Positions 3,402-62,677 of a stretch of 64,000 bases of DNA are shown in pieces (position 1 is the stretch's first letter; each line of letters starts with the position of its first letter). Source of the DNA: Escherichia coli (lineage in GTDB: Bacteria; Pseudomonadota; Gammaproteobacteria; Enterobacterales; Enterobacteriaceae); NCBI RefSeq assembly GCF_051903065.1, contig NZ_CP178438.1; one strand, written 5' to 3'. The notes beneath the pieces were generated by a model, which saw only the letters and a list, made by a program, of their open reading frames with translations, did not search any database and was not told the origin of the DNA. The position numbers and the translations under genes are program-made.

Positions 3402-4211
3402 ATGAAACAATATGAAGATGGTTATAACGTGAATGGATATAGCTGGGAAAATGAAACAATTGAGTATTTGTTGAATGATAAACAACTGACAGATAATCAC
3501 ATACCTGAATGGGTTAAAAAAAATGAAATTGCAGCATTCTGGTTCTGGTTAGTTATAATTAACACAGATCCCAAACTCCTTGGGGTTCGTAATGAATTAG
3601 GGTTCAATACAGCCATGATGGGGCTGATTCCTGCGGGGAGTATACCCATAACAACAATTCCTTCAGATCATGAAATGAGACTGGATGTTATAAGCAAATG
3701 GATTAATGCATTAATCCTTGACAATCAATCAGATTGCTTCATCTCAACAATGCATCAAAACTGGCTGCAGATCGAAAAGAGAAACGAAGCCAAATGGCTT
3801 AAAAAGAATACAGAACAACTCGAATGGGCATGGAAATATATCAATGCACGCATCCCGCACACGTATCTTTCCTGGTTTTATCCTGTAAGTGATAACGAAA
3901 GATACATTGCTATCGTAGTTTTACTAAAAATTTTATTCCCCGCAGATACACCATACTTACAGCAGCCAAAAGTACTTCACTATGGGGTTGCCGCAAAAGA
4001 AAAATTTTTCGACAAGATGCACAATGCATTCCGAAAACAGTTTACCGACGGAAAAAAAGATAAGCGGGTACAAATCAACGTTAAAATATCATCAGATGCA
4101 AAACGTACTCTGGACAGACTGACCAGAGAACTGAAAACAACACAACAGGCTGTCCTGGAACATCTGATTCAGAACCACAGGCTGGTGATTCAGAACCACA
4201 GACTGTATTAA
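3402..4211 (+). CDS. Hypothetical protein with C-terminal ribbon-helix-helix-like segment
   Basis: ORF 3288-4211; preferred ATG at 3402 (MKQYEDG) preceded by GAGG. C-terminus RVQINVKISSDAKRTLDRLTRELKTTQQAVLEHLIQ resembles an RHH DNA-binding motif. N-terminal about 220 aa unrecognised. Confidence 0.5.
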   Translation: MKQYEDGYNVNGYSWENETIEYLLNDKQLTDNHIPEWVKKNEIAAFWFWLVIINTDPKLLGVRNELGFNTAMMGLIPAGSIPITTIPSDHEMRLDVISKWINALILDNQSDCFISTMHQNWLQIEKRNEAKWLKKNTEQLEWAWKYINARIPHTYLSWFYPVSDNERYIAIVVLLKILFPADTPYLQQPKVLHYGVAAKEKFFDKMHNAFRKQFTDGKKDKRVQINVKISSDAKRTLDRLTRELKTTQQAVLEHLIQNHRLVIQNHRLY

Positions 4212-5155
4212 CTTTCACCACTTCTGCTCCTGCCGATTTTCTTCTTTTGGTAGTGTCTCCTGGCTGCGGATATCAGATACTTTTCCGTCATTTTGTTGCA
4301 GAACTCTTCAATGTAGTTAATCATTTTCTGGTGTGCTTTCAGCTTTTCTTCCCCGGGGGACGCTTTCAGATAAATGTCCTCCTTTTCCACAAGCGCATTG
4401 ACAAACTCCCCTAAACATCCCTGGTTATAAAGCGACGTGAAAAACAACACATCCCCCAGTCTCTCCAGTAACTGTGGTTTATCCCCGAAATGTTTTTTTA
4501 TACTTTCAAAAGGTTTTCTATTTTCCGGATCAAAAAAAACACTTAATCCCAGTCGCTTATATTCCTGGTAAAAAAGTTCAAACGTCGGGGATGCTGAACG
4601 GCAAATAAACGAAGACTGCGCCCATGGATTAAAATCTGTGACACGCCTCCCCTCCCGCACTTCCTGTCGTGTCAGCGGTGGTTCAGCAAACCAGGCGTCC
4701 AGCTCAGCCGAATCGTTATCCCTGCTCAAAACCTCATACAAACTGCCCGTGAACGGTTGAGCCGTTTGTTTTGTTGCTTCGCCTTCTGATTGTCTGAATC
4801 CATCCACTTTTCTCCGGATATTACGCGGAATCAGCATAAAAGGCGGGACATTAAGTGATAAACGTTTACCCGTCATGCGATACCATTGACCTACCTCAAC
4901 CTTAATCCGTGTATCTGACTTTAGCTCAAGTGCCATTATGTTAAGCAGGTACAGATAACGCACCGTATAACGATTAAAATGTTTCTCCGGATCAAACGAT
5001 TCTGACCGTTCTCCTCTGTACACGAGTCTGCTGCGCTTCAGTATTCGCAGAGTATATTTCCAGGCCGGACTTTTACAAATGGCGGTAACTCTGGCCTTAT
5101 TAACAATGTCGCGTAATGCATCAATCTGTTGTGCAGTCATCTCTTCCCTCCACAC
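4208..5155 (-). CDS. Hypothetical protein, no recognisable domain
   Basis: 315 aa ORF (alternative start 5140, MTAQQ). Convergent with the previous gene; stop codons overlap within TTAA. Uninterrupted long ORF, basic C-terminal tail. Confidence 0.5.
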   Translation of the reverse strand: MWREEMTAQQIDALRDIVNKARVTAICKSPAWKYTLRILKRSRLVYRGERSESFDPEKHFNRYTVRYLYLLNIMALELKSDTRIKVEVGQWYRMTGKRLSLNVPPFMLIPRNIRRKVDGFRQSEGEATKQTAQPFTGSLYEVLSRDNDSAELDAWFAEPPLTRQEVREGRRVTDFNPWAQSSFICRSASPTFELFYQEYKRLGLSVFFDPENRKPFESIKKHFGDKPQLLERLGDVLFFTSLYNQGCLGEFVNALVEKEDIYLKASPGEEKLKAHQKMINYIEEFCNKMTEKYLISAARRHYQKKKIGRSRSGES

Positions 5156-5246: not shown

Positions 5247-6131
5247 ATGTCATTCAGCCATTCTTCCCTCTCCGCACAAGTGAAATCATATCTGACGTTT
5301 CTTCCTGAAGAAATTCGCCAGAAAATCCTTGAACATCTCCACGGTGTTATTCATTACGAGCCCGTGATTGGCATTATGGGTAAATCCGGCACCGGCAAAA
5401 GCAGTCTGTGTAATGCCATTTTTCAGTCCCGTATCTGCGCCACGCATCCCCTGAACGGCTGCACCCGCCAGGCTCATCGCCTCACCCTGCAGATTGGTGA
5501 ACGCAGAATGACGCTGGTCGATCTGCCCGGCATTGGTGAAACACCGCAGCATGATCAGGAATACCGGGAGCTTTACCGTCAGTTACTGCCGGAACTGGAT
5601 CTGATTATCTGGATCCTGCGGGCTGATGAACGTGCGTATGCTGCTGATATTGCCATGCATCAGTTTTTACTGAATGAAGGTGCAGATCCCTCGCGTTTTC
5701 TGTTTGTTCTCAGCCATGCCGATCGCGTGTTTCCTGCTGAAGAATGGAACGACGCAGAAAAATGCCCGTCCCGTCAGCAGGAACTCTCACTGGCGACAGT
5801 AACAGCCCGGGTGGCCACCCTGTTCCCGTCATCATTTCCGGTACTCTCCGTTGCAGCGCCTGTCGGCTGGAATCTTCCGGCACTGGTGTCACTGATGATC
5901 CACGCACTGCCACCACAGGCAACCAGCGCGGTTTATTCACATATCCGGGGGGAAAACCGCTCTGAACAGGCCCGGAAACACGCACAACAGACTTTTGGTG
6001 ACGCCATCGGGAAAAGTTTTGACGACGCCGTTGCCCGGTTCAGTTTTCCGGCCTGGATGTTACAGCTTCTGCGTAAAGCCCGGGCCCGCATTATCCACCT
6101 ACTGGTCACACTGTGGGATCACCTGTTCTGA
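5247..6131 (+). CDS. YeeP/YkfA/YfjP-family P-loop GTPase of CP4-like islands
   Basis: Walker A GIMGKSGTGKSS; G3-like DLPGIGE; recalled similarity to the YeeP/YfjP/YkfA family. Confidence 0.8.
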   Translation: MSFSHSSLSAQVKSYLTFLPEEIRQKILEHLHGVIHYEPVIGIMGKSGTGKSSLCNAIFQSRICATHPLNGCTRQAHRLTLQIGERRMTLVDLPGIGETPQHDQEYRELYRQLLPELDLIIWILRADERAYAADIAMHQFLLNEGADPSRFLFVLSHADRVFPAEEWNDAEKCPSRQQELSLATVTARVATLFPSSFPVLSVAAPVGWNLPALVSLMIHALPPQATSAVYSHIRGENRSEQARKHAQQTFGDAIGKSFDDAVARFSFPAWMLQLLRKARARIIHLLVTLWDHLF

Positions 6132-6249: not shown

Positions 6250-6927
6250 ATGAATACCAGAATGCTTTTTCCCCTGCTGTTCACTGTGGCATCCTTCTCC
6301 ACCTCCGCCGGTAACTGGGCTGTCAAAAACGGCTGGTGTCAGACCATGACGGAAGATGGTCAGGCGCTGGTAATGCTGAAAAATGGCACGATTGGTATTA
6401 CCGGCCTGATGCAGGGATGCCCGAATGGCGTACAGACGCTCCTGGGCAGCCGTATCAGTATTAACGGTAACCTGATCCCCACATCACAAATGTGTAATCA
6501 GCAGACAGGATTCAGGGCTGTTGAGGTGGAAGTCGGACAGGCGCCGGAAATGGTCAAAAAAGCCGTTCACTCCATAGCAGAGCGTGATGTGTCCGTTTTA
6601 CAGGCATTTGGTGTACGAATGGAATTCACCCGCGGTGATATGCTGAAGGTCTGTCCGAAATTTGTCACATCACTTGCCGGTTTTTCCCCGAAACAGACAC
6701 CCGCCATTAATAAAGATTCCGTCCTGCAGGCTGCCCGGCTGGCATACGCCCGGGAATATGACGAGGAAACAACAGAAACCGCTGATTTTGGCTCTTACGA
6801 AGTAAAAGGCAATAAGGTTGAGTTTGAAGTGTTCAATCCTGAAGACCGTGCGTACGACAAAGTGACCGTCACGGTTGGTGCTGACGGTAATGCCACCGGT
6901 GCCAGCGTTGAATTTATCGGAAAATAG
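6250..6927 (+). CDS. Secreted protein of unknown function (N-terminal signal peptide)
   Basis: 225 aa; hydrophobic N-terminus MNTRMLFPLLFTVASFSTSAG; occupies the slot downstream of the GTPase where flu (Ag43) sits in CP4-44. Confidence 0.55.
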   Translation: MNTRMLFPLLFTVASFSTSAGNWAVKNGWCQTMTEDGQALVMLKNGTIGITGLMQGCPNGVQTLLGSRISINGNLIPTSQMCNQQTGFRAVEVEVGQAPEMVKKAVHSIAERDVSVLQAFGVRMEFTRGDMLKVCPKFVTSLAGFSPKQTPAINKDSVLQAARLAYAREYDEETTETADFGSYEVKGNKVEFEVFNPEDRAYDKVTVTVGADGNATGASVEFIGK

Positions 6928-6956: not shown

Positions 6957-7166
6957 TTGCCCGAAGGCCCTTTCTCACGCGAACAGGCGGTTGCCGTCAC
7001 AACAGCTTACCGCAATGTGCTTATTGAAGATGACCAGGGAACGCATTTCCGGCTGGTTATCCGTAATGCTGAAGGTCAGTTGCGCTGGCGGTACTGGAAT
7101 TTTGAATCCGATGCCGGAAAACAGCTTAATGTGTGGCTCGCCAGTGAAGGGCTTCTCAGACAATAA
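6957..7166 (+). CDS. Small conserved island protein (DUF905-like)
   Basis: 69 aa ORF followed directly by a hairpin plus T-tract terminator; family recalled from CP4-like islands; start uncertain. Confidence 0.4.
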
Positions 7167-7256: not shown

Positions 7257-8075
7257 ATGCGATTAGCAAGTCGTTTTGGTTATGCGAACCAGATACGCCG
7301 TGACCGCCCCTTAACTCGCGAAGAACTGATGCAGGTCGTCCCCAGCGTATTCGGGGAAGATAAGCACACATCCAGAAGCGAGAACTATACCTGGATCCCC
7401 ACCATCACCGTGCTGGAAAGCCTGCAGCGGGAAGGCTTTCAGCCCTTCTTTGCCTGCCAGACCCGCGTACGTGACCCGGGCCGCCGGGGGTATACCAAAC
7501 ACATGCTGCGTCTGCGCCGTGACGGGGAGATAAACGGACAACATGTCCCTGAAATCATCCTGCTGAACTCCCATGACGGTACCTCCAGCTACCAGATGCT
7601 GCCGGGTTACTTCAGGTTCGTCTGCCAGAACGGCTGCGTCTGTGGTCAGTCTCTGGGGGAAGTGCGTGTTCCGCACCGGGGAAATGTGGTGGACAGAGTC
7701 ATTGAAGGGGCTTACGAAGTGGTGGGCGTTTTTGACCGGATTGAGGAAAAGCGTGATGCCATGCAGTCGCTGGTCCTGCCGCCACCGGCACGCCAGGCGC
7801 TGGCACAGGCGGCACTGACTTACCGTTATGGTGACGAACATCAGCCCGTCACCACCGCCGACATTCTGACGCCACGACGCCGGGAGGATTACGGTAAGGA
7901 CCTGTGGAGTGCTTATCAGACCATCCAGGAAAATATGCTGAAAGGCGGGATTTCTGGTCGCAGCGCTAAAGGAAAACGTATCCACACCCGTGCCATTCAC
8001 AGCATCGACACGGACATTAAGCTCAATCGCGCATTGTGGGTGATGGCAGAAACGCTGCTGGAGAGCATGCGCTGA
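7257..8075 (+). CDS. DUF932-family protein (YfjQ/YafZ-like)
   Basis: 272 aa; recalled similarity to YfjQ/YafZ; conserved position upstream of the antirestriction gene. Confidence 0.75.
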   Translation: MRLASRFGYANQIRRDRPLTREELMQVVPSVFGEDKHTSRSENYTWIPTITVLESLQREGFQPFFACQTRVRDPGRRGYTKHMLRLRRDGEINGQHVPEIILLNSHDGTSSYQMLPGYFRFVCQNGCVCGQSLGEVRVPHRGNVVDRVIEGAYEVVGVFDRIEEKRDAMQSLVLPPPARQALAQAALTYRYGDEHQPVTTADILTPRRREDYGKDLWSAYQTIQENMLKGGISGRSAKGKRIHTRAIHSIDTDIKLNRALWVMAETLLESMR

Positions 8076-8166: not shown

Positions 8167-8652
8167 ATGACAACCTTTTCGCATAGCTCCACCACGCCTT
8201 CTGTTTCCGTAACCACTGCACCAGGGAATAACCAGTCTCAACTGGTTGCCACTCCCGTCCCTGATGAACAGCGCATCAGTTTCTGGCCGCAACATTTTGG
8301 CCTCATTCCACAGTGGGTGACCCTGGAGCCCCGTGTCTTCGGCTGGATGGACCGTCTTTGCGAAGACTACTGCGGTGGTATCTGGAATCTGTACACCCTG
8401 AACAACGGTGGGGCATTTATGGTACCCGAACCGGATGACGATGATGACGAAACATGGGTACTGTTCAATGCCATGAACGGCAACCGCGCTGAAATGAGCC
8501 CGGAAGCCGCCGGCATTGCCGCCTGTCTGATGGCGTACAGTCATCACGCCTGTCGTACAGAGAATTATGCCATGACGGTCCATTATTATCGGTTGCGGGA
8601 TTACGCCCTGCAGCATCCGGAATGCAACGCCATTATGCGCATCATCGACTGA
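8167..8652 (+). CDS. Antirestriction protein, ArdB/KlcA-like (YfjX/YafX family)
   Basis: 161 aa; acidic stretch PEPDDDDDETW; family and position typical of CP4-like islands. Confidence 0.75.
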   Translation: MTTFSHSSTTPSVSVTTAPGNNQSQLVATPVPDEQRISFWPQHFGLIPQWVTLEPRVFGWMDRLCEDYCGGIWNLYTLNNGGAFMVPEPDDDDDETWVLFNAMNGNRAEMSPEAAGIAACLMAYSHHACRTENYAMTVHYYRLRDYALQHPECNAIMRIID

Positions 8653-8667
8653 ATGGAGAGAAGCACA

Positions 8668-9144
8668 ATGCAACAGCTTTCCTTTCTGCCCGGAGAGATG
8701 ACGCCCGGCGAGCGCAGCCTCATTCTGCGGGCCCTGAAAACCCTGGACCGCCATCTTCATGAACCCGGTGTGGCCTTCACCTCCACGCATGCGGCACGGG
8801 AATGGCTGATTCTGAACATGGCGGGACTGGAGCGGGAAGAGTTCCGGGTACTGTATCTGAACAACCAGAATCAGCTGATTGCCGGTGAAACCCTCTTCAC
8901 AGGCACCATCAACCGCACGGAAGTCCATCCCCGGGAGGTAATTAAACGTGCCCTGTACCACAATGCCGCTGCCGTGATACTGGCACACAACCACCCGTCC
9001 GGTGAAGTCACCCCCAGTAAGGCAGATCGCCTTATCACGGAACGCCTGGTACAGGCACTGGCCCTGGTGGATATCCGGGTACCGGACCATCTGATAGTTG
9101 GTGGCAACCAGGTTTTCTCCTTTGCGGAACACGGTCTGCTTTAA
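8668..9144 (+). CDS. yeeS: RadC-like JAB/MPN domain protein (YeeS/YfjY/YkfG family)
   Basis: JAMM motif HNHPSG; near identity to recalled YeeS from MQQLSFLPGEMTPGERSL; ORF track starts 15 nt upstream at 8653. Confidence 0.85.
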   Translation: MQQLSFLPGEMTPGERSLILRALKTLDRHLHEPGVAFTSTHAAREWLILNMAGLEREEFRVLYLNNQNQLIAGETLFTGTINRTEVHPREVIKRALYHNAAAVILAHNHPSGEVTPSKADRLITERLVQALALVDIRVPDHLIVGGNQVFSFAEHGLL

Positions 9145-9212: not shown

Positions 9213-9434
9213 ATGAAAATCATCACCCGTGGCGAAGCCATGCGTATTCACCGTCAGCATCCGGCATCCCGTCTTTTTCCGTTCTGTACCGGCAAATACC
9301 GCTGGCACGGCAGTGCTGAAGCGTATACCGGTCGTGAAGTGCAGGATATTCCCGGTGTGCTGGCCGTGTTTGCTGAACGCCGTAAGGACAGTTTTGGCCC
9401 GTATGTCCGGCTGATGAGCGTCACCCTGAACTGA
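9213..9434 (+). CDS. yeeT: DUF987 protein (YeeT-like)
   Basis: 73 aa MKIITRGEAMRIHRQHPASRLFPF... matches recalled YeeT. Confidence 0.85.
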   Translation: MKIITRGEAMRIHRQHPASRLFPFCTGKYRWHGSAEAYTGREVQDIPGVLAVFAERRKDSFGPYVRLMSVTLN

Positions 9435-9513: not shown

Positions 9514-9888
9514 GTGTCAGACACTCTCCCCGGGACAACGCATCCCGACGATAACAACGACCGCCCCTGGTGGGGGCTACCCTGCACCGTGACGCCCTGT
9601 TTTGGGGCACGTCTGGTGCAGGAGGGTAACCGGTTGCATTACCTTGCAGACCGCGCCGGTATCAGAGGCCGGTTCAGCGACGCGGATGCGTACCATCTGG
9701 ACCAGGCCTTTCCGCTGCTGATGAAACAACTGGAACTCATGCTCACCAGCGGTGAACTGAATCCCCGCCATCAGCATACCGTCACGCTGTATGCAAAAGG
9801 GCTGACCTGCAAAGCCGATACCCTCAGCAGTTGTGGTTACGTTTATATGGCTGTTTATCCGACACTGGCACCCGCAACCACCTCATAA
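9514..9888 (+). CDS. cbeA: CbeA (YeeU) antitoxin of the CbtA/CbeA type IV toxin-antitoxin system
   Basis: 124 aa; near identity to recalled YeeU (MSDTLPGTT...WWGLPCTVTPCFGARLVQEGNRLHYLADRAGIRG). Confidence 0.9.
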   Translation: MSDTLPGTTHPDDNNDRPWWGLPCTVTPCFGARLVQEGNRLHYLADRAGIRGRFSDADAYHLDQAFPLLMKQLELMLTSGELNPRHQHTVTLYAKGLTCKADTLSSCGYVYMAVYPTLAPATTS

Positions 9889-9934
9889 CCCCGAATATCT
9901 CACCTTTAGCACTACCAGTTACAGAGAACTTAAG

Positions 9935-10312
9935 ATGAAAACATTACCTGACACACACGTACGGGAGGCATCGCGCTGCCCGTCTCCCGTCACCATCTGG
10001 CAGACACTGCTCACCCGACTGTTGGACCAGCATTACGGCCTCACACTGAATGACACACCGTTCGCTGATGAACGTGTGATTGAGCAGCATATTGAGGCAG
10101 GCATTTCACTGTGCGATGCGGTGAACTTTCTCGTTGAAAAATACGCACTGGTACGTACCGACCAGCCAGGATTCAGCGCCTGTACCCGTTCTCAGTTAAT
10201 AAACAGTATTGATATCCTCCGGGCCCGCCGGGCAACCGGCCTGATGGCCCGCGACAATTACAGAACGGTAAATAACATTACCCTGGGTAAACATCCGGGG
10301 GCGAAACAATGA
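9935..10312 (+). CDS. cbtA: CbtA (YeeV) toxin, cytoskeleton-binding type IV toxin
   Basis: 125 aa from ATG 9935 (MKTLPDTHV...); matches recalled YeeV (LNDTPFADERVIEQHIEAGISLCDAVNFLVEKYALVRTDQPGFSA); directly downstream of cbeA. Confidence 0.9.
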   Translation: MKTLPDTHVREASRCPSPVTIWQTLLTRLLDQHYGLTLNDTPFADERVIEQHIEAGISLCDAVNFLVEKYALVRTDQPGFSACTRSQLINSIDILRARRATGLMARDNYRTVNNITLGKHPGAKQ

Positions 10313-10800
10313 AACTGGCCCTGACGCTGGAAGCCGACAGCATTAACGTGCAGGCACTGAACATGGGGCGCATTGTCGTTGACGTCGATGGTGTTACTCT
10401 CGCTGAACTGATTAACGTGGTCTGCGATAACGGTTACTCCCTTCGTGTTGTTGATGAATCTGACCGGACATCAGCAGAGCGCACGCCATCATCTGCGGCG
10501 GCCCTTACCGGCATACGCTGCAGTACCGCGCATATCACGGCAAAGGACAACGCCTGGCTGTACTCGCTGTCACATCAGACGAATGGCACCGGCGAATCAG
10601 AATGGATTCATTTCACAGGTAGCGGATATCTGTTACGTACCGATGCGTGGTCATACCCGGTTCTGCGGCTTAAGCGCCTGGGCCTGTCAAAAACGTTCCG
10701 TCGTCTGGTTGTCACACTTACCCGACGTTATGGCGTCAGTCTCATTCATCTGGATGCCAGCGCTGAATGTCTGCCGGACCTGCCCACTTTCGACTGGTAA
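10309..10800 (+). CDS. YeeW-like protein
   Basis: 163 aa ORF whose start overlaps the cbtA stop; conserved position after cbtA. Confidence 0.65.
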   Translation: MKLALTLEADSINVQALNMGRIVVDVDGVTLAELINVVCDNGYSLRVVDESDRTSAERTPSSAAALTGIRCSTAHITAKDNAWLYSLSHQTNGTGESEWIHFTGSGYLLRTDAWSYPVLRLKRLGLSKTFRRLVVTLTRRYGVSLIHLDASAECLPDLPTFDW

Positions 10801-10811
10801 CCAGGAACAAC

Positions 10812-11009
10812 ATGAAATCATTAACCACGGAAACCGCACTGGATATTCTGATTGCGTGGCTACAGGACAATATCGACTGCGAATCGGGAATTATCTTTGA
10901 CAACGATGAGGATAGAACGGATTCGGCAGCACTGTTGCCCTGTATCGAACAGGCCAGGGAGGATATCCGTATCCTGCGCCAGTTGCAGCTTCTGCAACAG
11001 AACCGGTGA
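10812..11009 (+). CDS. Small hypothetical protein
   Basis: 65 aa from ATG 10812 (MKSLTTETALD...); followed by a hairpin plus T-tract terminator. Confidence 0.4.
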   Translation: MKSLTTETALDILIAWLQDNIDCESGIIFDNDEDRTDSAALLPCIEQAREDIRILRQLQLLQQNR

Positions 11010-11093: not shown

Positions 11094-11960
11094 ATGTCTG
11101 AAATCACAGCCCCCCGTCCGGAAGTGGTCAACGGGCATACGGACGTTATCGGCTCAACCAGCATCCGCCACATTCTGGCTGTACGAAAGAGTGCGCTGCT
11201 GCAAATCGACACACTTATCCGGCAACTGGCAGAAATCTCGGTGCTGACGGAAAGCATCGGAGGTAAAACTGCACTGGACTGGGCCATGAAACAGGATTTT
11301 CGCTGCGGTTGCTGGCTGATGGAAAAACCGGAAACCGCAATGAAAGCCATCACCCGCAACCTTGACCGCGAAATCTGGCGTGATCTGATGCAACGTTCAG
11401 GGATGCTGTCATTAATGGATGCACAAGCCCGTGATACATGGTACCGGTCACTGGAGTACGATAATTTTCCGGAAATCAGCGAAGCAAATATCCTGAGCAC
11501 GTTTGAACAACTGCACCAGAACAAAGATGAAGTGTTTGAGCGAGGGGTGCTCAACGTTTTCAGAGGACTGAGCTGGAATTACAAAACCAATTCACCCTGC
11601 AAATTTGGCAGTAAAATTATCGTCAACAATCTGGTGAGGTGGGACCGGTGGGGGTTTCATCTTATCACCGGACAACAGGCCGATCGACTTGCCGATCTGG
11701 AAAGAATGCTGCACCTGTTCAGCGGCAAACCGATCCCCGACAACCGGGAAAACATCACCATTCATCTGGATGATCACATCCAGTCTGTTCAGGGTAAAGA
11801 GGACTATGAAGATGAGATGTTCAGCATCAGATACTTTAAGAAGGGCTCCGCGCACATCACGTTCAGGAAACCAGAGCTGGTTGACAGGCTTAATGATATT
11901 ATTGCCAGACACTACCCGGAAGCCCTGGCAAGCACAGTGAACAAAAGCCGCAAGGCATAA
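11094..11960 (+). CDS. Hypothetical protein (conserved island cargo)
   Basis: 288 aa uninterrupted ORF with AAAGGAA ribosome-binding site upstream; no catalytic motif recognised. Confidence 0.6.
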   Translation: MSEITAPRPEVVNGHTDVIGSTSIRHILAVRKSALLQIDTLIRQLAEISVLTESIGGKTALDWAMKQDFRCGCWLMEKPETAMKAITRNLDREIWRDLMQRSGMLSLMDAQARDTWYRSLEYDNFPEISEANILSTFEQLHQNKDEVFERGVLNVFRGLSWNYKTNSPCKFGSKIIVNNLVRWDRWGFHLITGQQADRLADLERMLHLFSGKPIPDNRENITIHLDDHIQSVQGKEDYEDEMFSIRYFKKGSAHITFRKPELVDRLNDIIARHYPEALASTVNKSRKA

Positions 11961-12031: not shown

Positions 12032-12295
12032 ATGCCTACCAGTGTATCCCTCAGTCCTTACTTTGAAACGTTTATCCGCGAACAAATAGAAAGTGGTCGG
12101 TACAACAATACAAGTGAAGTCATTCGTGCCGGACTTCGTGCTCTGGAAGAACGGGAACAGCAGATAAAGCTTGAATCACTCCAGAGCGCCGTGGCCGCAG
12201 GCATCAACAGCGGTGAAAGTAAAAGTGCTGAAGAGGTATTCGGGCGACTGACGCACAAATACAAAAAGATGGCAGAAGGTGAACAGCCAATATGA
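12032..12295 (+). CDS. parD: ParD-family type II antitoxin (RHH)
   Basis: 87 aa; start overlaps ParE by ATGA; motif SEVIRAGLRALEEREQ typical of ParD/COG3609. Confidence 0.8.
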   Translation: MPTSVSLSPYFETFIREQIESGRYNNTSEVIRAGLRALEEREQQIKLESLQSAVAAGINSGESKSAEEVFGRLTHKYKKMAEGEQPI

Positions 12296-12618
12296 AACTG
12301 ACTGTTTCACCATTAGCAGAACACGATCTTGAAGCTATAGGTGACTGGATCGCTCAGGATAATCCTGTCCGTGCAATCAGTTTTACCGAAGAGCTTTACC
12401 AACAATGTCTGTTGATAGCCGAATCGCCAGTACTCTACAGAGAAAGACCCGAGTTAGGGGCTGGGATCAGAGGTTGTTCGTATGGTCGTTACCTTCTGCT
12501 GTTCAGGGTACTGGATACTGAAGTTCGTATCGAACGTATCGTTCATGGTTCCCGGGATATCAACAGGGTACTTGCAGAGCCAGACGACAAACCATCAGAT
12601 CATTTCTGGCAGCCATAA
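12292..12618 (+). CDS. parE: ParE/RelE-family type II toxin
   Basis: 108 aa; 4-bp overlap with the upstream antitoxin; RelE/ParE-like size and context. Confidence 0.8.
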   Translation: MKLTVSPLAEHDLEAIGDWIAQDNPVRAISFTEELYQQCLLIAESPVLYRERPELGAGIRGCSYGRYLLLFRVLDTEVRIERIVHGSRDINRVLAEPDDKPSDHFWQP

Positions 12619-12895
12619 ACAAAATCTGTGCGTTAACGCTCCCTAACACAGGTAGCCAGGTATTTTATAAATCTCTGTATTTTGTTGTCACTTCGATTCC
12701 GCGATTCAGCATATCGAACCAGACAAAATGATTACAACAAACCACAAGAAAGAGGGATTATAGCGTCAAAAGAATTCGAATTGCACATGGGGGCCTCATT
12801 GGTGGCCTCAAAAAGAACAAGGATAAAACAGTCGATACAAAACAATTGGTTATATAACCAGTTTCATTCCGAGTCCGGGCACCACTATTCATAAG

Positions 12896-13244: not shown

Positions 13245-13928
13245 TTAACTCTCTTTTCCCCACCTGAGAAGCACCTCTTCCGCAATCCCCACAGGCAAAA
13301 ACTCCTGCTCCAGACGACCACGCGGTAAACGGGTTAAGTAGCGATAAAAATCGGCCTCCTCGTTAAGCAAGCCATCAGGTACAGCTTCCTTCGCTATGAC
13401 CGGTTCTGGAACGGCGCTATGACTGGCATACTGCTCAAACAACTCACGGTTCATGAGCAGGGCATCAAGCGTCGGACGACAACGCCTGGCTCTCGCCAGC
13501 ATCAGTAGTCCCCAGCTATCCATGTCCCCCCAATAGGCAACGCGTTTTTCATCCAGAACAGAACTGGATAGCCATTGCACGTCCAGGCCACAGCCTAAAA
13601 TCGCGATAGTGTCAGATAATGCTGGAAGATGATGCAAACACTGCTCATTTTCAACCACCAGCACTTGCGACGCGGGTAATGTTGTTTCCGCCAGTTCCGC
13701 CGTTGTTACCCGGCATTTTTTAAAAGGAAGCAAGCCGGGTGATAATGGTACAACTAAAACCCAGTGACTGGACTCATCAAAAGCATCAAGAAAAGTTGTT
13801 AATCCCTGCTCGCTGGCTTCTCCTGAAAATCGCACGTCCAACTGACCATAGTGTTGTTCCACAAACGTAATTTCGGCAACCGTCCACTGTGCCCAGTGAT
13901 TACGGTAATGCTGCGTTTTATCCACCAT
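13245..13928 (-). CDS. Toprim-like (Topo VI-A/Spo11/JetD C-terminal-type) domain protein, standalone
   Basis: 227 aa; motifs VLVVENEQCLHHL and YWGDMDSWGLLML resemble the Toprim glutamate and DxD signatures of DUF2220/JetD; family assignment from recall only. Confidence 0.5.
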   Translation of the reverse strand: MVDKTQHYRNHWAQWTVAEITFVEQHYGQLDVRFSGEASEQGLTTFLDAFDESSHWVLVVPLSPGLLPFKKCRVTTAELAETTLPASQVLVVENEQCLHHLPALSDTIAILGCGLDVQWLSSSVLDEKRVAYWGDMDSWGLLMLARARRCRPTLDALLMNRELFEQYASHSAVPEPVIAKEAVPDGLLNEEADFYRYLTRLPRGRLEQEFLPVGIAEEVLLRWGKES

Positions 13929-13945
13929 GTCAGACCTCCCGGGTA

Positions 13946-15400
13946 TCAGTCTCGTTGTTTTTCCTGCGCCAGCGTAAAGATTTGAGCCCGGAGTTGTTGT
14001 TCAGCCTGCAGGACCGCCTGCTGACGCTGCAGTGAGACTTCAGGGAGCAACTTCAACTGCCGAAGCTGCTCTTCTACCGGTACGGTCTGCCGGAAGCTTG
14101 TCAGCATGCCAAAGACCTGCGATTTAAGCTCACTGACGGTAATGTATTTTCCTCTCTGACCATCAAGCGCATTCAGTTTATGGGCAAGTGCCTGAAGCTG
14201 TGTCATTCCTTCATGCCAGCCATTCATTGTATCGACAGGAAGTACTGAGACATTAACCTGTTGCTGCCACTGCTGTGTCAGAGGCTTAGCCTGCTCCGGC
14301 CACAACGACTGAGCTTGTTCTGTAAGTTTTCTGGCATAAGTGATATTCCAGTCAGGAGGTGATTTATCCAGTCGGGCCAGCTGCTGCTGTGTCTGTGCAA
14401 TAAGATCCTGCGGTAACGGAGTCTGCTGACGCAACATCCGCAGCTGTTCAGACGTGAGAGGTGCAGGGAACGGAGCCAGTGAAGCAGCTAGCTGATTCTG
14501 TAGAGGGTCTGGCCGGTGAATAAAATGCCAGCTCCACACTGAAACTATGCTTATCACCAACATGGTACACATCCCGGCGGCAAAGGATTTCCACTTTTTA
14601 ACCGGAACAGGCATTGTCGACAGCACTTCCACATTCGGCTGCGACTGCGGTTCCCGTTGAGCAACGTAAACCCACTGTACTGCACTCCCTGGCGTATCTT
14701 CATTCGGTCCACCAGAAAAGTCTCTCGTGGATGCTATCGCATCATTTGTCACGGTGGCAGGCAACCCGATACCAGGCTGAATGCTCGAGCCGGTACTGGT
14801 TATGCCATTGCTGTTTTCCAGCCGGGCAGCACTATTGTGCATCAGGATACGCAATGTATCGAGTTGGCTGAGATGTTTTAGCTCCAGGCGCTGTAGTACC
14901 TCTCCAAGGCCTGTAAGCAGTTGCTCCACCCGGTACAGCTGGTTGATGTCGCTGTAATTTAACGGGAGCGATCGCATTCGTTGCTGCAGGCGCTGACTCA
15001 GGCTGCTGAGGATTTCCATGCGGGCATGAACTGGATGCGGCCACAGAGTCCCCCACTGATGGCTTATCAGTGCCTCGAGTATCGCCAGCCCTTCATTGAG
15101 CCCGAATAAGCCAGCCAGCTGCGTACGCGCAAGCGTATACCAGGCTGCCGTTTGCAACTCCACGCCGTTCTGCTCAAACAGTGAGAGACAAAGTTTTTCG
15201 ACATACTGCCAGCTCACATCCGGGCGAGCCGGATGTGTTAGCTTACTCAGTTCATCACGCAGGGCGGCATAATCCGGTAGCATGCGCGGGTCGCCGCCGG
15301 TTTTTAATTTACGCTTGGGGATATCATTCATGGTCAGTTGTCCATTAGACGTACCAGGGGCTATTAAAGGGTATTGTTTATGCGGCTTCACTTTCTGCAT
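13946..15400 (-). CDS. ImpA_N-domain, membrane-anchored type VI secretion accessory protein (VasL/TagA-like)
   Basis: N-terminal GGDPRMLPDYAALRDEL...DVSWQYVEKL...LQTAAWYTLAR...GLNEGLAILEALISHQWGTLWP matches the ImpA_N signature; one predicted transmembrane helix (FAAGMCTMLVISIVSVWSW); start may be the internal ATG at 15331. Confidence 0.7.
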   Translation of the reverse strand: MQKVKPHKQYPLIAPGTSNGQLTMNDIPKRKLKTGGDPRMLPDYAALRDELSKLTHPARPDVSWQYVEKLCLSLFEQNGVELQTAAWYTLARTQLAGLFGLNEGLAILEALISHQWGTLWPHPVHARMEILSSLSQRLQQRMRSLPLNYSDINQLYRVEQLLTGLGEVLQRLELKHLSQLDTLRILMHNSAARLENSNGITSTGSSIQPGIGLPATVTNDAIASTRDFSGGPNEDTPGSAVQWVYVAQREPQSQPNVEVLSTMPVPVKKWKSFAAGMCTMLVISIVSVWSWHFIHRPDPLQNQLAASLAPFPAPLTSEQLRMLRQQTPLPQDLIAQTQQQLARLDKSPPDWNITYARKLTEQAQSLWPEQAKPLTQQWQQQVNVSVLPVDTMNGWHEGMTQLQALAHKLNALDGQRGKYITVSELKSQVFGMLTSFRQTVPVEEQLRQLKLLPEVSLQRQQAVLQAEQQLRAQIFTLAQEKQRD

Positions 15401-15995
15401 ATTCGAGACTCTGCAGATACTTTAGCGCCAGCGGGTCAGCAATATATTCAACCTGCCCGTGGTGACGCTCCACCTCATCGATTATCCGGCTGAGTTCACC
15501 CCGGAAAAACTTCTTATGCAGGTTGATTCGGTTAATCCGGTAGCTTTCCAGAGGGTCATGTAGTGTCTTTTCAAGCGCAGGAGCGTCATCGCTGGAAATC
15601 ATGGCGTGTGCGTCAAAATCAAACAGCACGGCTGCCCCGCTCAGTTCTTTCACGCGCTCCATAGGCTCCAGCCGTCGGGCCATGCCGATTTTGAAGACGT
15701 TTTCACCGAAGGAGCCGATATTAGAAATTACATACACATGTCCCTGCTTCGTGAACTGGGCCATAGATTTGGCGCGTTCATACTGCTGATGAACGTCCTG
15801 TATTTTCCGCTCCAGCTCCAGACGCTGTCTTTCCAGTTCATCCCTGTGAGCACCTTCTACGGCGAGCAGGGCTTCTTCCAGGAATACCGGTACACATTTT
15901 ACCGACCGGTCGTCGATACGAAGAACGAGTGCGCCAATATCAAATACTCCCCACTCAACCAGCAGGTCCGTAACGGATGTACTGATCAGTGTCAA
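15378..15995 (-). CDS. T5orf172 (GIY-YIG-like) domain protein with N-terminal coiled coil
   Basis: GHVYVISN...FKIGMARRLEPMERVKEL...LEKTLHDPL...INLHKKFFRGEL matches the T5orf172/Mug113 pattern; overlaps tssE by 41 bp and the VasL ORF by 23 bp, so the start is uncertain. Confidence 0.55.
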   Translation of the reverse strand: MTLISTSVTDLLVEWGVFDIGALVLRIDDRSVKCVPVFLEEALLAVEGAHRDELERQRLELERKIQDVHQQYERAKSMAQFTKQGHVYVISNIGSFGENVFKIGMARRLEPMERVKELSGAAVLFDFDAHAMISSDDAPALEKTLHDPLESYRINRINLHKKFFRGELSRIIDEVERHHGQVEYIADPLALKYLQSLEYAESEAA

Positions 15996-16425
15996 GATAC
16001 TGCTGTTGCTTCAGGTGTCTCAGCATCACTCGTCCCTCGGGCATAAACTCGGTGCCGTAACGCACGAGGCCAATCCCCTTAAGCTCAGCATCAATGGCAT
16101 AACGAAGCTCGCCGGGGACGCTCTGCTCCAGCAGGATGACAGTAATTTTTTTCAGGCGCGGTTCGTATTTGAGCAGGACGGCAGACAATGTGCCCATCAG
16201 CTCATGGGCCGTTCCCGGCATGCCCTGGAGAACTCTGGTCATATCCGGCAGGCCATAGTCCGGCAGATGCGCCAGCGTGCCGGCACGGCAGTTGAGGATA
16301 CGCTGCATATTGTCGAGTACGGACAAAATGACCTGGTTCTGCTCGCTGACCTGGTGCAGGTCGAGGCCGCCGGTGAAGTTGCCATAAAGAGTTTCATACA
16401 ATGAAGGACGGGATGACTCACTCAT
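15955..16425 (-). CDS. tssE: Type VI secretion baseplate subunit TssE (gp25-like)
   Basis: 156 aa; motifs SLYETL, LDNMQRILNCRAGTLAHLPDYGLPD, LKYEPRL typical of the TssE/GPW-gp25 family. Confidence 0.75.
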   Translation of the reverse strand: MSESSRPSLYETLYGNFTGGLDLHQVSEQNQVILSVLDNMQRILNCRAGTLAHLPDYGLPDMTRVLQGMPGTAHELMGTLSAVLLKYEPRLKKITVILLEQSVPGELRYAIDAELKGIGLVRYGTEFMPEGRVMLRHLKQQQYLDTDQYIRYGPAG

Positions 16426-16960
16426 CTTTCAGCGCCTTCAGGGTCAGGCGGTTGTTACCGGCCTCAATCACCCGGGCTTTATCCGGATCAAGGTCATCAC
16501 GGCTCAGCACCACCCGCCAGGTGTTGTTCACCTGGTCTGGCGACATAAACATGCCAGCCACTGCGACATACTGCGCATTTTCATCCATCGGCATATCCAC
16601 CATCACCGCCCCACCCGGCTGCAGGCGGATGTCTTTCTCAGCTACCAGGTCTGCTTTAATGGCCTGACTGTCCGCCCTGAACAGTGACGGGTAGTCCGTC
16701 GTGTCAAAGGTTTTGCGGTCTTTAAGCTGGTAAATACGCACCACCGTCGACAATGCCACGCCGCCTGCATTGCTGTTCACTGCCTCACGGGCCCGAATAT
16801 CCAGATGCAGAGTTTTTATCTGCTTATAAAAAATCGATTTGGTCACAGCAACGGTGCCGTCTGTCACTTTTTGCGTCAGCCCACAGCCCGCCAGCATCAA
16901 GGTGATACCCGCGGCCAGCGCAGCCAGAGGAAATTTACCAGCGGTAATCGCCATCTTCAT
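16418..16960 (-). CDS. tssJ: Type VI secretion lipoprotein TssJ (SciN/VasD-like)
   Basis: Start MKMAITAG with lipobox LAGC; VVRIYQLKD...LQPGG...AVAGMF pattern of the TssJ family; ATG at 16960 checked on the sequence. Confidence 0.75.
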   Translation of the reverse strand: MKMAITAGKFPLAALAAGITLMLAGCGLTQKVTDGTVAVTKSIFYKQIKTLHLDIRAREAVNSNAGGVALSTVVRIYQLKDRKTFDTTDYPSLFRADSQAIKADLVAEKDIRLQPGGAVMVDMPMDENAQYVAVAGMFMSPDQVNNTWRVVLSRDDLDPDKARVIEAGNNRLTLKALKDE

Positions 16961-17580
16961 CGGTCTCCCTGCGGTGAATATTTTCCTGTACCCGCTCATA
17001 GCGGCCCAGATTAATGGTGATTGTTTTTGGGTGTGATGCGGTCCTGGCCGCATTCAGCGGTCGCATCACGGCAGTGCGGCCCAGTTGCACCGCCCCTGCG
17101 TTGGGTTTACTGCTCATGGTCGCGTCAGGAAGCAGACTGCGATCGACACACAGCTGTAGCCGCACATCCAGGCGAGACCCAAGATACACGTGCAGGAGCG
17201 CCATCAGGTCCGCGTGAAGCTCCCCGCCCGATAACCAGCCCTGCACTTCTGCCGGGTCAGTGGTGGTCAGGCGCATCAGCACCTGGCTGTTCACGTCGGC
17301 GGCATAGTTGCCCATCACCGGTCGGTTTGTCAGGGTGACGGGCTGGCTAACGCTCATGGTCAATGGCTTCTTCAGCGGCACACGGCGTTTGTCGTGGTGC
17401 CAGATTTTCGCCTGCGTGTTGGGTGCCAGCAGGCGCACCAGCGAGGCCATGCCTTCTGCGGTACGCCCCGGCAGTAACATGACCGGCAGCAGTGCCAGAA
17501 AGCGCGAAGCCGGGGTCGCGATACTGTCCGTGCAGCCGTTAATCCCGAGCCCGGCCAGTCCCAGCAGGTACTGCGAGGTT
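16935..17580 (-). pseudogene. C-terminal fragment of a type VI secretion-associated gene, truncated by IS1
   Basis: The reading frame runs without a native start into the IS1 end at 17581; identity (TssG or other) not resolved. Confidence 0.5.
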
Positions 17581-17595
17581 GGTAATGACTCCAAC

Positions 17596-18099
17596 TTATT
17601 GATAGTGTTTTATGTTCAGATAATGCCCGATGACTTTGTCATGCAGCTCCACCGATTTTGAGAACGACAGCGACTTCCGTCCCAGCCGTGCCAGGTGCTG
17701 CCTCAGATTCAGGTTATGCCGCTCAATTCGCTGCGTATATCGCTTGCTGATTACGTGCAGCTTTCCCTTCAGGCGGGATTCATACAGCGGCCAGCCATCC
17801 GTCATCCATATCACCACGTCAAAGGGTGACAGCAGGCTCATAAGACGCCCCAGCGTCGCCATAGTGCGTTCACCGAATACGTGCGCAACAACCGTCTTCC
17901 GGAGCCTGTCATACGCGTAAAACAGCCAGCGCTGGCGCGATTTAGCCCCGACATAGCCCCACTGTTCGTCCATTTCCGCGCAGACGATGACGTCACTGCC
18001 CGGCTGTATGCGCGAGGTTACCGACTGCGGCCTGAGTTTTTTAAGTGACGTAAAATCGTGTTGAGGCCAACGCCCATAATGCGGGCTGTTGCCCGGCAT
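17596..18099 (-). CDS. insB: IS1 InsB
   Basis: 167 aa matching recalled IS1 InsB. Confidence 0.9.
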
Positions 18100-18293
18100 C
18101 CAACGCCATTCATGGCCATATCAATGATTTTCTGGTGCGTACCGGGTTGAGAAGCGGTGTAAGTGAACTGCAGTTGCCATGTTTTACGGCAGTGAGAGCA
18201 GAGATAGCGCTGATGTCCGGCGGTGCTTTTGCCGTTACGCACCACCCCGTCAGTAGCTGAACAGGAGGGACAGCTGATAGAAACAGAAGCCAC
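18018..18293 (-). CDS. insA: IS1 InsA
   Basis: 91 aa [43 protein letters not shown]... matches IS1 InsA. Confidence 0.9.
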
Positions 18294-20140: not shown

Positions 20141-20495
20141 ATTGTTCAGTCTCTTATTATCTTTATATGCTTGATATACTTAAGGTTGTAATAAGCAAAA
20201 GAGGACTGAACTGTAAAATATAGGCGTTATACTTTACAGCAACAGTACGCCGCTAACGCAATTGCTACCTCTGGCATAACAAGTATATCGGGTAAGGGTT
20301 TCTGTTCCGCACACGCAGGCGCAGAGTATCGTTAAGATATCCATATTGTTGTTTTAGGCCCGCTAGTAATGCGCTACGGGTATTTAATATTGTTAAACCC
20401 TGATAATCGCTCCGGTTATTTCCGGGATAAATGTACTACCGCAGTTACTATCATAGCCCCGACAATAAAACTTGCCGGGGCTTTTTTTGACGCTA

Positions 20496-56624: not shown

Positions 56625-56870
56625 ACCGGGCATCATTGTGAATTCACTCTTACCTGATGTGGCGAAAACGCCTTATCCGCCTACAAACGCATGAAGATTC
56701 AACATGTTGCAATAGATTTTGTAGGCCTGATAAGCGTAGCGCATCAGGCATTGAGCACCTAATGCCGGATGCGGCGTGAACGCCTTATCCGGCCTACAAA
56801 CGCACGAAGATTCAACATGTTGCAATAGATTTTGTAGGCCTGATGAGCGTAGCGCATCAGGCAATTCTAC
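56625..56870. repeat. BIME/REP repeat cluster (two tandem copies of an about 100 bp unit)
   Basis: Near-duplicate units CCTTATCCG(G)CCTACAAACGCA(T/C)GAAGATTCAACATGTTGCAATAGATTTTGTAGGCCTGAT(A/G)AGCGTAGCGCATCAGGCA. Confidence 0.8.
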
Positions 56871-62573: not shown

Positions 62574-62677
62574 GCTTTTTACGCCTCAAACTTTCGTTTT
62601 CGGGCATTTCGTCCAGACTTAAGTTCACAACACCTCACCGGAGCCTGCTCCGGTGAGTTCATATAAAGGAGGAACGT

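Follow-up and report, generated by a model that had tools for sequence, protein, structure and literature searches.

We consider it likely, at a probability of roughly 0.8, that the two genes at positions 9514–10312 of the Escherichia coli DNA analysed here (64,000 nucleotides of contig NZ_CP178438.1; hereafter the window) form an intact, co-oriented CbeA/CbtA toxin-antitoxin pair that would act in the manner of its K-12 counterpart and is located close to the attR end of a P4-like tRNA-Phe island. To judge from the alignments, the pair differs from that of K-12 by one short variable cassette, and the remainder is conserved by selection. One specific difference of the window toxin, Cys15, is a widespread natural allele and no lesion. 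The family is well characterised, and this pair is an ordinary representative of it that RefSeq already annotates.

Results

The upstream gene, cbeA (yeeU-type; 9514–9888, + strand), encodes an antitoxin of 124 aa from a GTG start, and the raw sequence shows a GAGG Shine-Dalgarno motif 8 nt 5' of this GTG. A full-length match to the Pfam profile CbeA_antitoxin (PF06154; E 2.1e-53; 179.5 bits, cut-off 27; profile positions 1–100 of 101) and resemblance to solved YeeU structures (PDB 2H28, K-12 YeeU, E 2e-77 over residues 1–117; PDB 2INW, E 1e-78) place the protein in the CbeA/YeeU family. Identity to K-12 CbeA amounts to 93% across the full alignment and to 96% within residues 1–117, the differences being found mainly in the tail after residue 117, and in identical loci the protein bears the RefSeq accession WP_032153712.1. 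CbeA, YfjZ and YagB have been listed among the E. coli proteins translocated via an F-type secretion system (PMC11288057).

The downstream gene, cbtA (yeeV-type; 9935–10312, + strand), encodes a toxin of 125 aa that carries Cys15 and Phe65 and ends at a TGA stop at 10310–10312. The mechanical list of open reading frames began this gene at a GTG at 9833, a start that we rejected, because the family's conserved MKTLP N-terminus, like the RefSeq annotation of identical loci, puts the true start at the ATG at 9935. The protein matches CbtA_toxin (PF06755) over the entire profile (1–112 of 112; E 1.7e-63; 212 bits, cut-off 25). It shares 89% identity with K-12 CbtA, 59% with YkfI and 64% with YpjF, and RefSeq names it 'TA system toxin CbtA family protein' (WP_000854735.1 in identical loci). 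The two reading frames were found exactly at the positions given by the earlier note, and its identification of a CbeA/CbtA pair is borne out by the full-length profile matches of both proteins and by their identities to K-12 proteins that have been characterised experimentally. [quoted passage not shown] A sequence search of the toxin against solved structures returned no match, and its AF2 model, which suggests no more than an unstructured tail at residues 1–17 before a helix at 18–34, with F65 within a helix at 59–73, is too weak (pLDDT 62, low) for placing residue 15 on the surface.

Comparison with the K-12 genes by the Nei-Gojobori method gave a dN/dS of 0.135 for cbeA and of 0.22 overall for cbtA; within cbtA, the value was 0.044 for codons 28–124 (3 non-synonymous versus 18 synonymous differences) and 0.76 for codons 1–27. 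The low values of the toxin core and the antitoxin indicate that both genes are kept by selection, and the toxin core is, on these codon counts, under strong purifying selection. Inactivating substitutions were sought in the toxin and none was found: the reading frame is full length, the core is constrained and F65 is kept. A pseudogenised toxin was likewise rejected, the gene having no frameshift, premature stop or truncation in addition to its low core dN/dS.

When the pair is aligned with the DNA of K-12 CP4-44, similarity collapses only from about codon 118 of cbeA through the spacer to about codon 27 of cbtA. This variable cassette (9866–10016, + strand) thus comprises the 3' tail of cbeA, the intergenic spacer, which measures 46 bp in the window versus 88 bp in K-12, and cbtA codons 1–27. 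The tail of CP4-44 CbeA after residue 117 differs from that of the window antitoxin, and residues 6–27 of CP4-44 CbtA are of another haplotype, with Arg15 and not Cys15. Most of the variation at the N-terminus of the family consists of two haplotypes, DTHVREASRC (Cys15) and VLPGQAASSR (Arg15), plus mosaics. At a query coverage of at least 80%, the window-type cassette is present in 1,979 of 5,426 complete genomes, including that of Nissle 1917, and the K-12-type cassette in 3,857 of the 5,426. That two haplotypes and mosaics circulate suggests that the toxin N-terminus recombines or that selection on it is relaxed or diversifying.

Phe65, the FtsZ determinant common to CbtA, YkfI and YpjF, is present in the window toxin; Arg15, an MreB determinant peculiar to K-12 CbtA and not shared across the family, is absent and residue 15 is Cys. 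A family search yielded 2,525 proteins at E <= 1e-10, and among the 73 full-length close relatives that were aligned, a sample biased towards the query, Cys15 occurs in 52, Arg15 in 17 and F65 in 72, the window toxin being one of the F65 carriers. Because Cys15 is also found in YkfI, in YpjF and in those 52 relatives, the lack of Arg15 does not exclude membership of the CbtA family. We also considered Cys15 as an inactivating mutation and rejected this, as it is the commoner state among the close relatives and the state of K-12's own paralogues.

The pair is embedded in a module of co-oriented genes, all on the + strand, of which the window holds one copy only. The module begins with a GTPase of the MMR_HSR1/dynamin-N type (5247–6131; PF01926, E 4.5e-15), which is distant from the K-12 island GTPases YeeP, YkfA and YfjP (34–36% identity). 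Its C-terminus gave a weak LeoBC-like match in PADLOC (E 4.7e-08; 30.6 bits); otherwise, no defence system was detected by PADLOC among the module genes. After a gene for a 225-aa protein follow a DUF905 gene of the YkfF type (6957–7166; PF06006, E 1.4e-27; 59% identity to YkfF), a DUF932 gene of the YafZ/YfjQ type (7257–8075; PF06067, E 2e-51; 76% identity to both YafZ and YfjQ), an antirestriction gene of the KlcA/ArdB type (8167–8652; PF03230, E 4.3e-37; 67–71% identity to YafX and LfgA, also called YfjX), a RadC-like JAB-domain gene of the YeeS type (8668–9144; PF04002, E 1.2e-45; 97% identity to K-12 YeeS) and a DUF987 gene of the YeeT type (9213–9434; PF06174, E 1.5e-40; 97% identity to K-12 YeeT). 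The RadC-like gene could start at 8653 or 8668, the latter corresponding to the RefSeq start; its CP4-57 paralogue LfgB is reported in PMC10846083 as a protease that cleaves MqsA.

Directly after the toxin lies a full-length DUF5983 (YeeW) gene (10309–10800; PF25638 and PF19419; 163 aa), whose ATG lies in a 4-bp overlap with the end of cbtA (ATGA in the raw sequence) and which, by virtue of this overlap, appears to be translationally coupled to cbtA. Among E. coli lineages, CbtA is usually followed by DUF5983, and a survey published in 2023 (PMC10790755) scored the latter as a toxin 'partner'. In a 2026 preprint, the sequence 3' of DUF5983 is linked to an AntiFam entry, which could represent a genuine protein. 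The RefSeq annotation of the identical locus continues on the + strand with a DUF957 gene (10812–11009), a methyltransferase-like DUF4942 gene (11094–11960; PHROG 6263 'DNA methyltransferase', E 5.6e-20) and a parD-parE type II toxin-antitoxin pair (12032–12618; reading frames overlapping by 4 bp). This parD-parE pair is a second toxin-antitoxin system and the last feature of the island ahead of the attR remnant. Rfam at gathering thresholds detected no RNA family inside the island and no isrC counterpart; outside the island, its matches (20219–20440, 45675–45751, 56724–56794 and 62576–62639) were C0719 sRNA, two REP-derived naRNA4 and ES173 sRNA.

The order from the GTPase to YeeW that the earlier note described holds in that all of the listed neighbours are present and match their Pfam profiles at full length, but the DUF905 gene had been omitted. 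That note had presented this order as the conserved one of cryptic prophages, in a CP4-44-like module; the protein-level comparison with CP4-44, CP4-6 and CP4-57 of MG1655 shows it to be a composite of the three K-12 islands, CP4-44 itself having neither DUF932 nor antirestriction genes. The description 'CP4-44-like' is apt for the end of the module from RadC to CbtA and fails for the left half. In the right half, identity to CP4-44 is 97% for RadC, 97% for DUF987, 96% for CbeA (residues 1–117) and 89% for CbtA, whereas the CP4-6 and CP4-57 homologues of these four proteins reach only 59–83%. With CP4-44 the window shares the Pfam families of the pair, the antitoxin-toxin order, the upstream RadC and DUF987 genes, F65 and a YeeW gene after the toxin; yet this last gene, full length in the window, is a 64-aa remnant in CP4-44, where DUF957 is also a partial remnant.

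The left half of the window module, with the 225-aa protein, DUF905, DUF932 and antirestriction genes, has the arrangement of CP4-6 and CP4-57. The left half of CP4-44 consists of yeeP, isrC, flu and yeeR, and the window contains no flu, yeeR or isrC. DUF932 (76% identity to the CP4-6 and CP4-57 proteins), antirestriction (67–71%) and DUF905 (59%) lack CP4-44 counterparts because K-12 CP4-44 has flu and yeeR in their place. CP4-6 and CP4-57 share with the window the GTPase, DUF932, DUF905, antirestriction, RadC, DUF987, antitoxin and toxin genes, and their pairs, YafW/YkfI and YfjZ/YpjF, respectively, are of the same families as the window pair, with toxins that likewise carry Cys15 and F65. 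The identity of these toxins and antitoxins to those of the window is, however, only 59–67%; YkfI and YpjF are shorter at the C-terminus, the spacer measures 20 bp and no DUF5983 gene follows.

The gene at 6250–6927 (+ strand) is a real and conserved reading frame for a protein of 225 aa with no known family: searches of Pfam, NCBIfam, PHROGs, PADLOC and PDB sequences gave no match. It has 59 homologous clusters, and those with a named source are all from Enterobacteriaceae. The earlier note had described a secreted protein of 225 aa where K-12 has Ag43. Like flu in K-12, the gene comes directly after the GTPase, yet its product is not an Ag43 homologue. 'Secreted' is deduced from a signal-peptide-like N-terminus, whose end is a conserved A-x-A|GNW motif, and from four invariant cysteines; the protein is probably exported. 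Its AF2 model is of moderate quality (pLDDT 76.6), and the matches to the C-terminal domain are only generic, of the cystatin/PepSY/NTF2-like type.

The right border of the island is marked by an attR-like copy of the 3' end of tRNA-Phe (pheV/pheU) at 12862–12884 (+ strand), in which 21 of 23 bases match the tRNA, with 2 mismatches; 0 such matches are expected by chance. This remnant lies approximately 2.6 kb downstream of the toxin-antitoxin pair, and the order RadC, DUF987, antitoxin, toxin and YeeW is thus found near an att site. Pairs of this kind have been located near the att sites of P4-like prophages (Wen et al., PMC5371832), and the distance observed here fits that placement. The window starts inside the island and contains no tRNA gene.

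The left part of the island (169–766, 920–1651 and 3402–5140) holds an IS110 transposase fragment, at 169–766, and also a replication-initiator-like gene of the inovirus Gp2 family and a convergent pair of hypothetical genes (269 and 310 aa) without a PHROG match; an integrase fragment is present in the island of related genomes. In some genomes the same island adjoins yghD/gsp/glcA, the pheV side, and in others cadC, the pheU side. Past attR, the window carries type VI secretion remnants on the minus strand (13245–18100; a VasL-domain protein and others) and then glcA. The corresponding place in other strains is occupied by yghD/gsp type II secretion genes, which means that the island flank itself is variable.

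At least 30 complete E. coli genomes carry an exact copy of the 871-bp locus of the pair (100% identity), 143 records match it at 99% identity or more, and a homologous place was found in 4,928 of 5,426 genomes, with a median of three per genome; a published survey counted up to eight CbtA copies per strain (PMC10790755). RefSeq already annotates the identical loci and gives their products the expected names. The identical locus, for example in ECCNB12-2 and A1_181, agrees over all 871 bp, with the same accessions and the same island genes, and differs in the flank past attR, where A1_181 has gsp genes versus the type VI secretion remnants of the window. Nissle 1917 also carries the window-type cassette.

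Discussion

By homology to K-12 CbtA, the window toxin would bind the H6/H7 loop of FtsZ via a surface that includes Phe65 and thereby block Z-ring assembly, and it would probably also bind the flat, double-filament face of MreB and block elongation. The earlier note took FtsZ and MreB as targets from published work on YeeV, and this holds: both are documented in PMC5624674, and the CbtA-FtsZ and CbtA-MreB interactions are direct and separable (Heller et al. 2017, PMC5624674). CbeA, presumably made from the same transcript, would neutralise the toxin, and in the published type IV model it would do so by bundling and stabilising the polymers of FtsZ and MreB and not by sequestering the toxin. 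This target-protection model comes, as cited in PMC5624674, from in vitro work on K-12 CbeA, and the identity of 93% between the two antitoxins suggests that it may extend to the window protein. Toxicity, targets, neutralisation mode and co-transcription of the window pair would all be those of the K-12 homologues. Three other explanations were weighed, and the evidence favours none of them.

The MreB arm is the least certain part of this mechanism, because residue 15 is Cys and not Arg, and the first alternative is that the Cys15 allele is a toxin of division only, which has kept FtsZ inhibition and lost or weakened MreB binding, so that its overexpression would produce filaments and not lemon-shaped cells. 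In K-12 CbtA, the R15C substitution alone specifically removes the two-hybrid signal with MreB, and the cells become filaments instead of lemons although the protein is still toxic (PMC5624674); CbtA, YkfI and YpjF all lose their FtsZ interaction through F65S (Heller, Tavag and Hochschild, PMC5624674), and the R15C/F65S double mutant of CbtA is the sole non-toxic form (PMC5624674). The window toxin carries Cys15 in a backbone that is 89% identical to K-12 CbtA, and nearly all of its divergence from K-12 falls in residues 6–27, around residue 15. On these grounds the MreB arm may be weak or absent in the window allele. However, YkfI and YpjF, which naturally have Cys15, still block elongation, and C15R has no effect in either of them (PMC5624674), which argues that the role of residue 15 depends on its context; in the MreB two-hybrid assay YpjF binds, whereas a YkfI-MreB interaction was not detected (PMC5624674). 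Moreover, the entire N-terminal segment differs and not residue 15 alone, so that compensating residues are likely, and the Cys15 allele is common. We therefore regard a toxin of division only as unlikely, and a probable action on MreB besides FtsZ remains the preferred reading.

A second alternative, that a degraded island has left the pair behind as a silent relic whose frames are intact but whose genes are unexpressed and without a present role, is very improbable. Degraded elements are indeed present, namely the IS110 fragment in the left part and the integrase fragment of related genomes, and the physiological roles of the K-12 copies are unclear (PMC5624674). A crude consensus scan found no sigma-70-like promoter directly upstream of cbeA on the + strand, and the same promoter and terminator scan gave promoter counts no higher than those in shuffled sequence and no convincing cbeA promoter. 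Against this, the scan is a crude measure and transcription could come from a promoter of the upstream operon; all ten module genes are full length; and a dN/dS of 0.04–0.14, versus a copy at a dS of 0.14–0.35, demonstrates that the protein sequences are under selection.

Equally doubtful is a unit of more than two genes, in which the coupled DUF5983 gene, and possibly the upstream DUF987 gene, would help to control the toxin, perhaps as a further antitoxin or as a regulator: the DUF5983 gene is full length, overlaps the cbtA stop and is consistently found 3' of CbtA across E. coli lineages (PMC10790755), but the two-gene pairs of the K-12 islands function as toxin-antitoxin systems although CP4-44 has only a remnant of YeeW and CP4-6 and CP4-57 have none.

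An intact CbeA/CbtA pair with K-12-like action thus stands as the reading that we prefer. As a discovery, this carries little weight; what the analysis settles is that this copy is intact and under selection. We speculate, with little confidence, that the cassette is a recombining specificity module whose main haplotypes set whether a CbtA copy hits MreB besides FtsZ. If this were true, multi-copy E. coli strains would hold toxins with different cytoskeletal target ranges. As a common allele with a natural Cys15, the window toxin is a ready natural variant for studying the target specificity of CbtA and the recognition of MreB.
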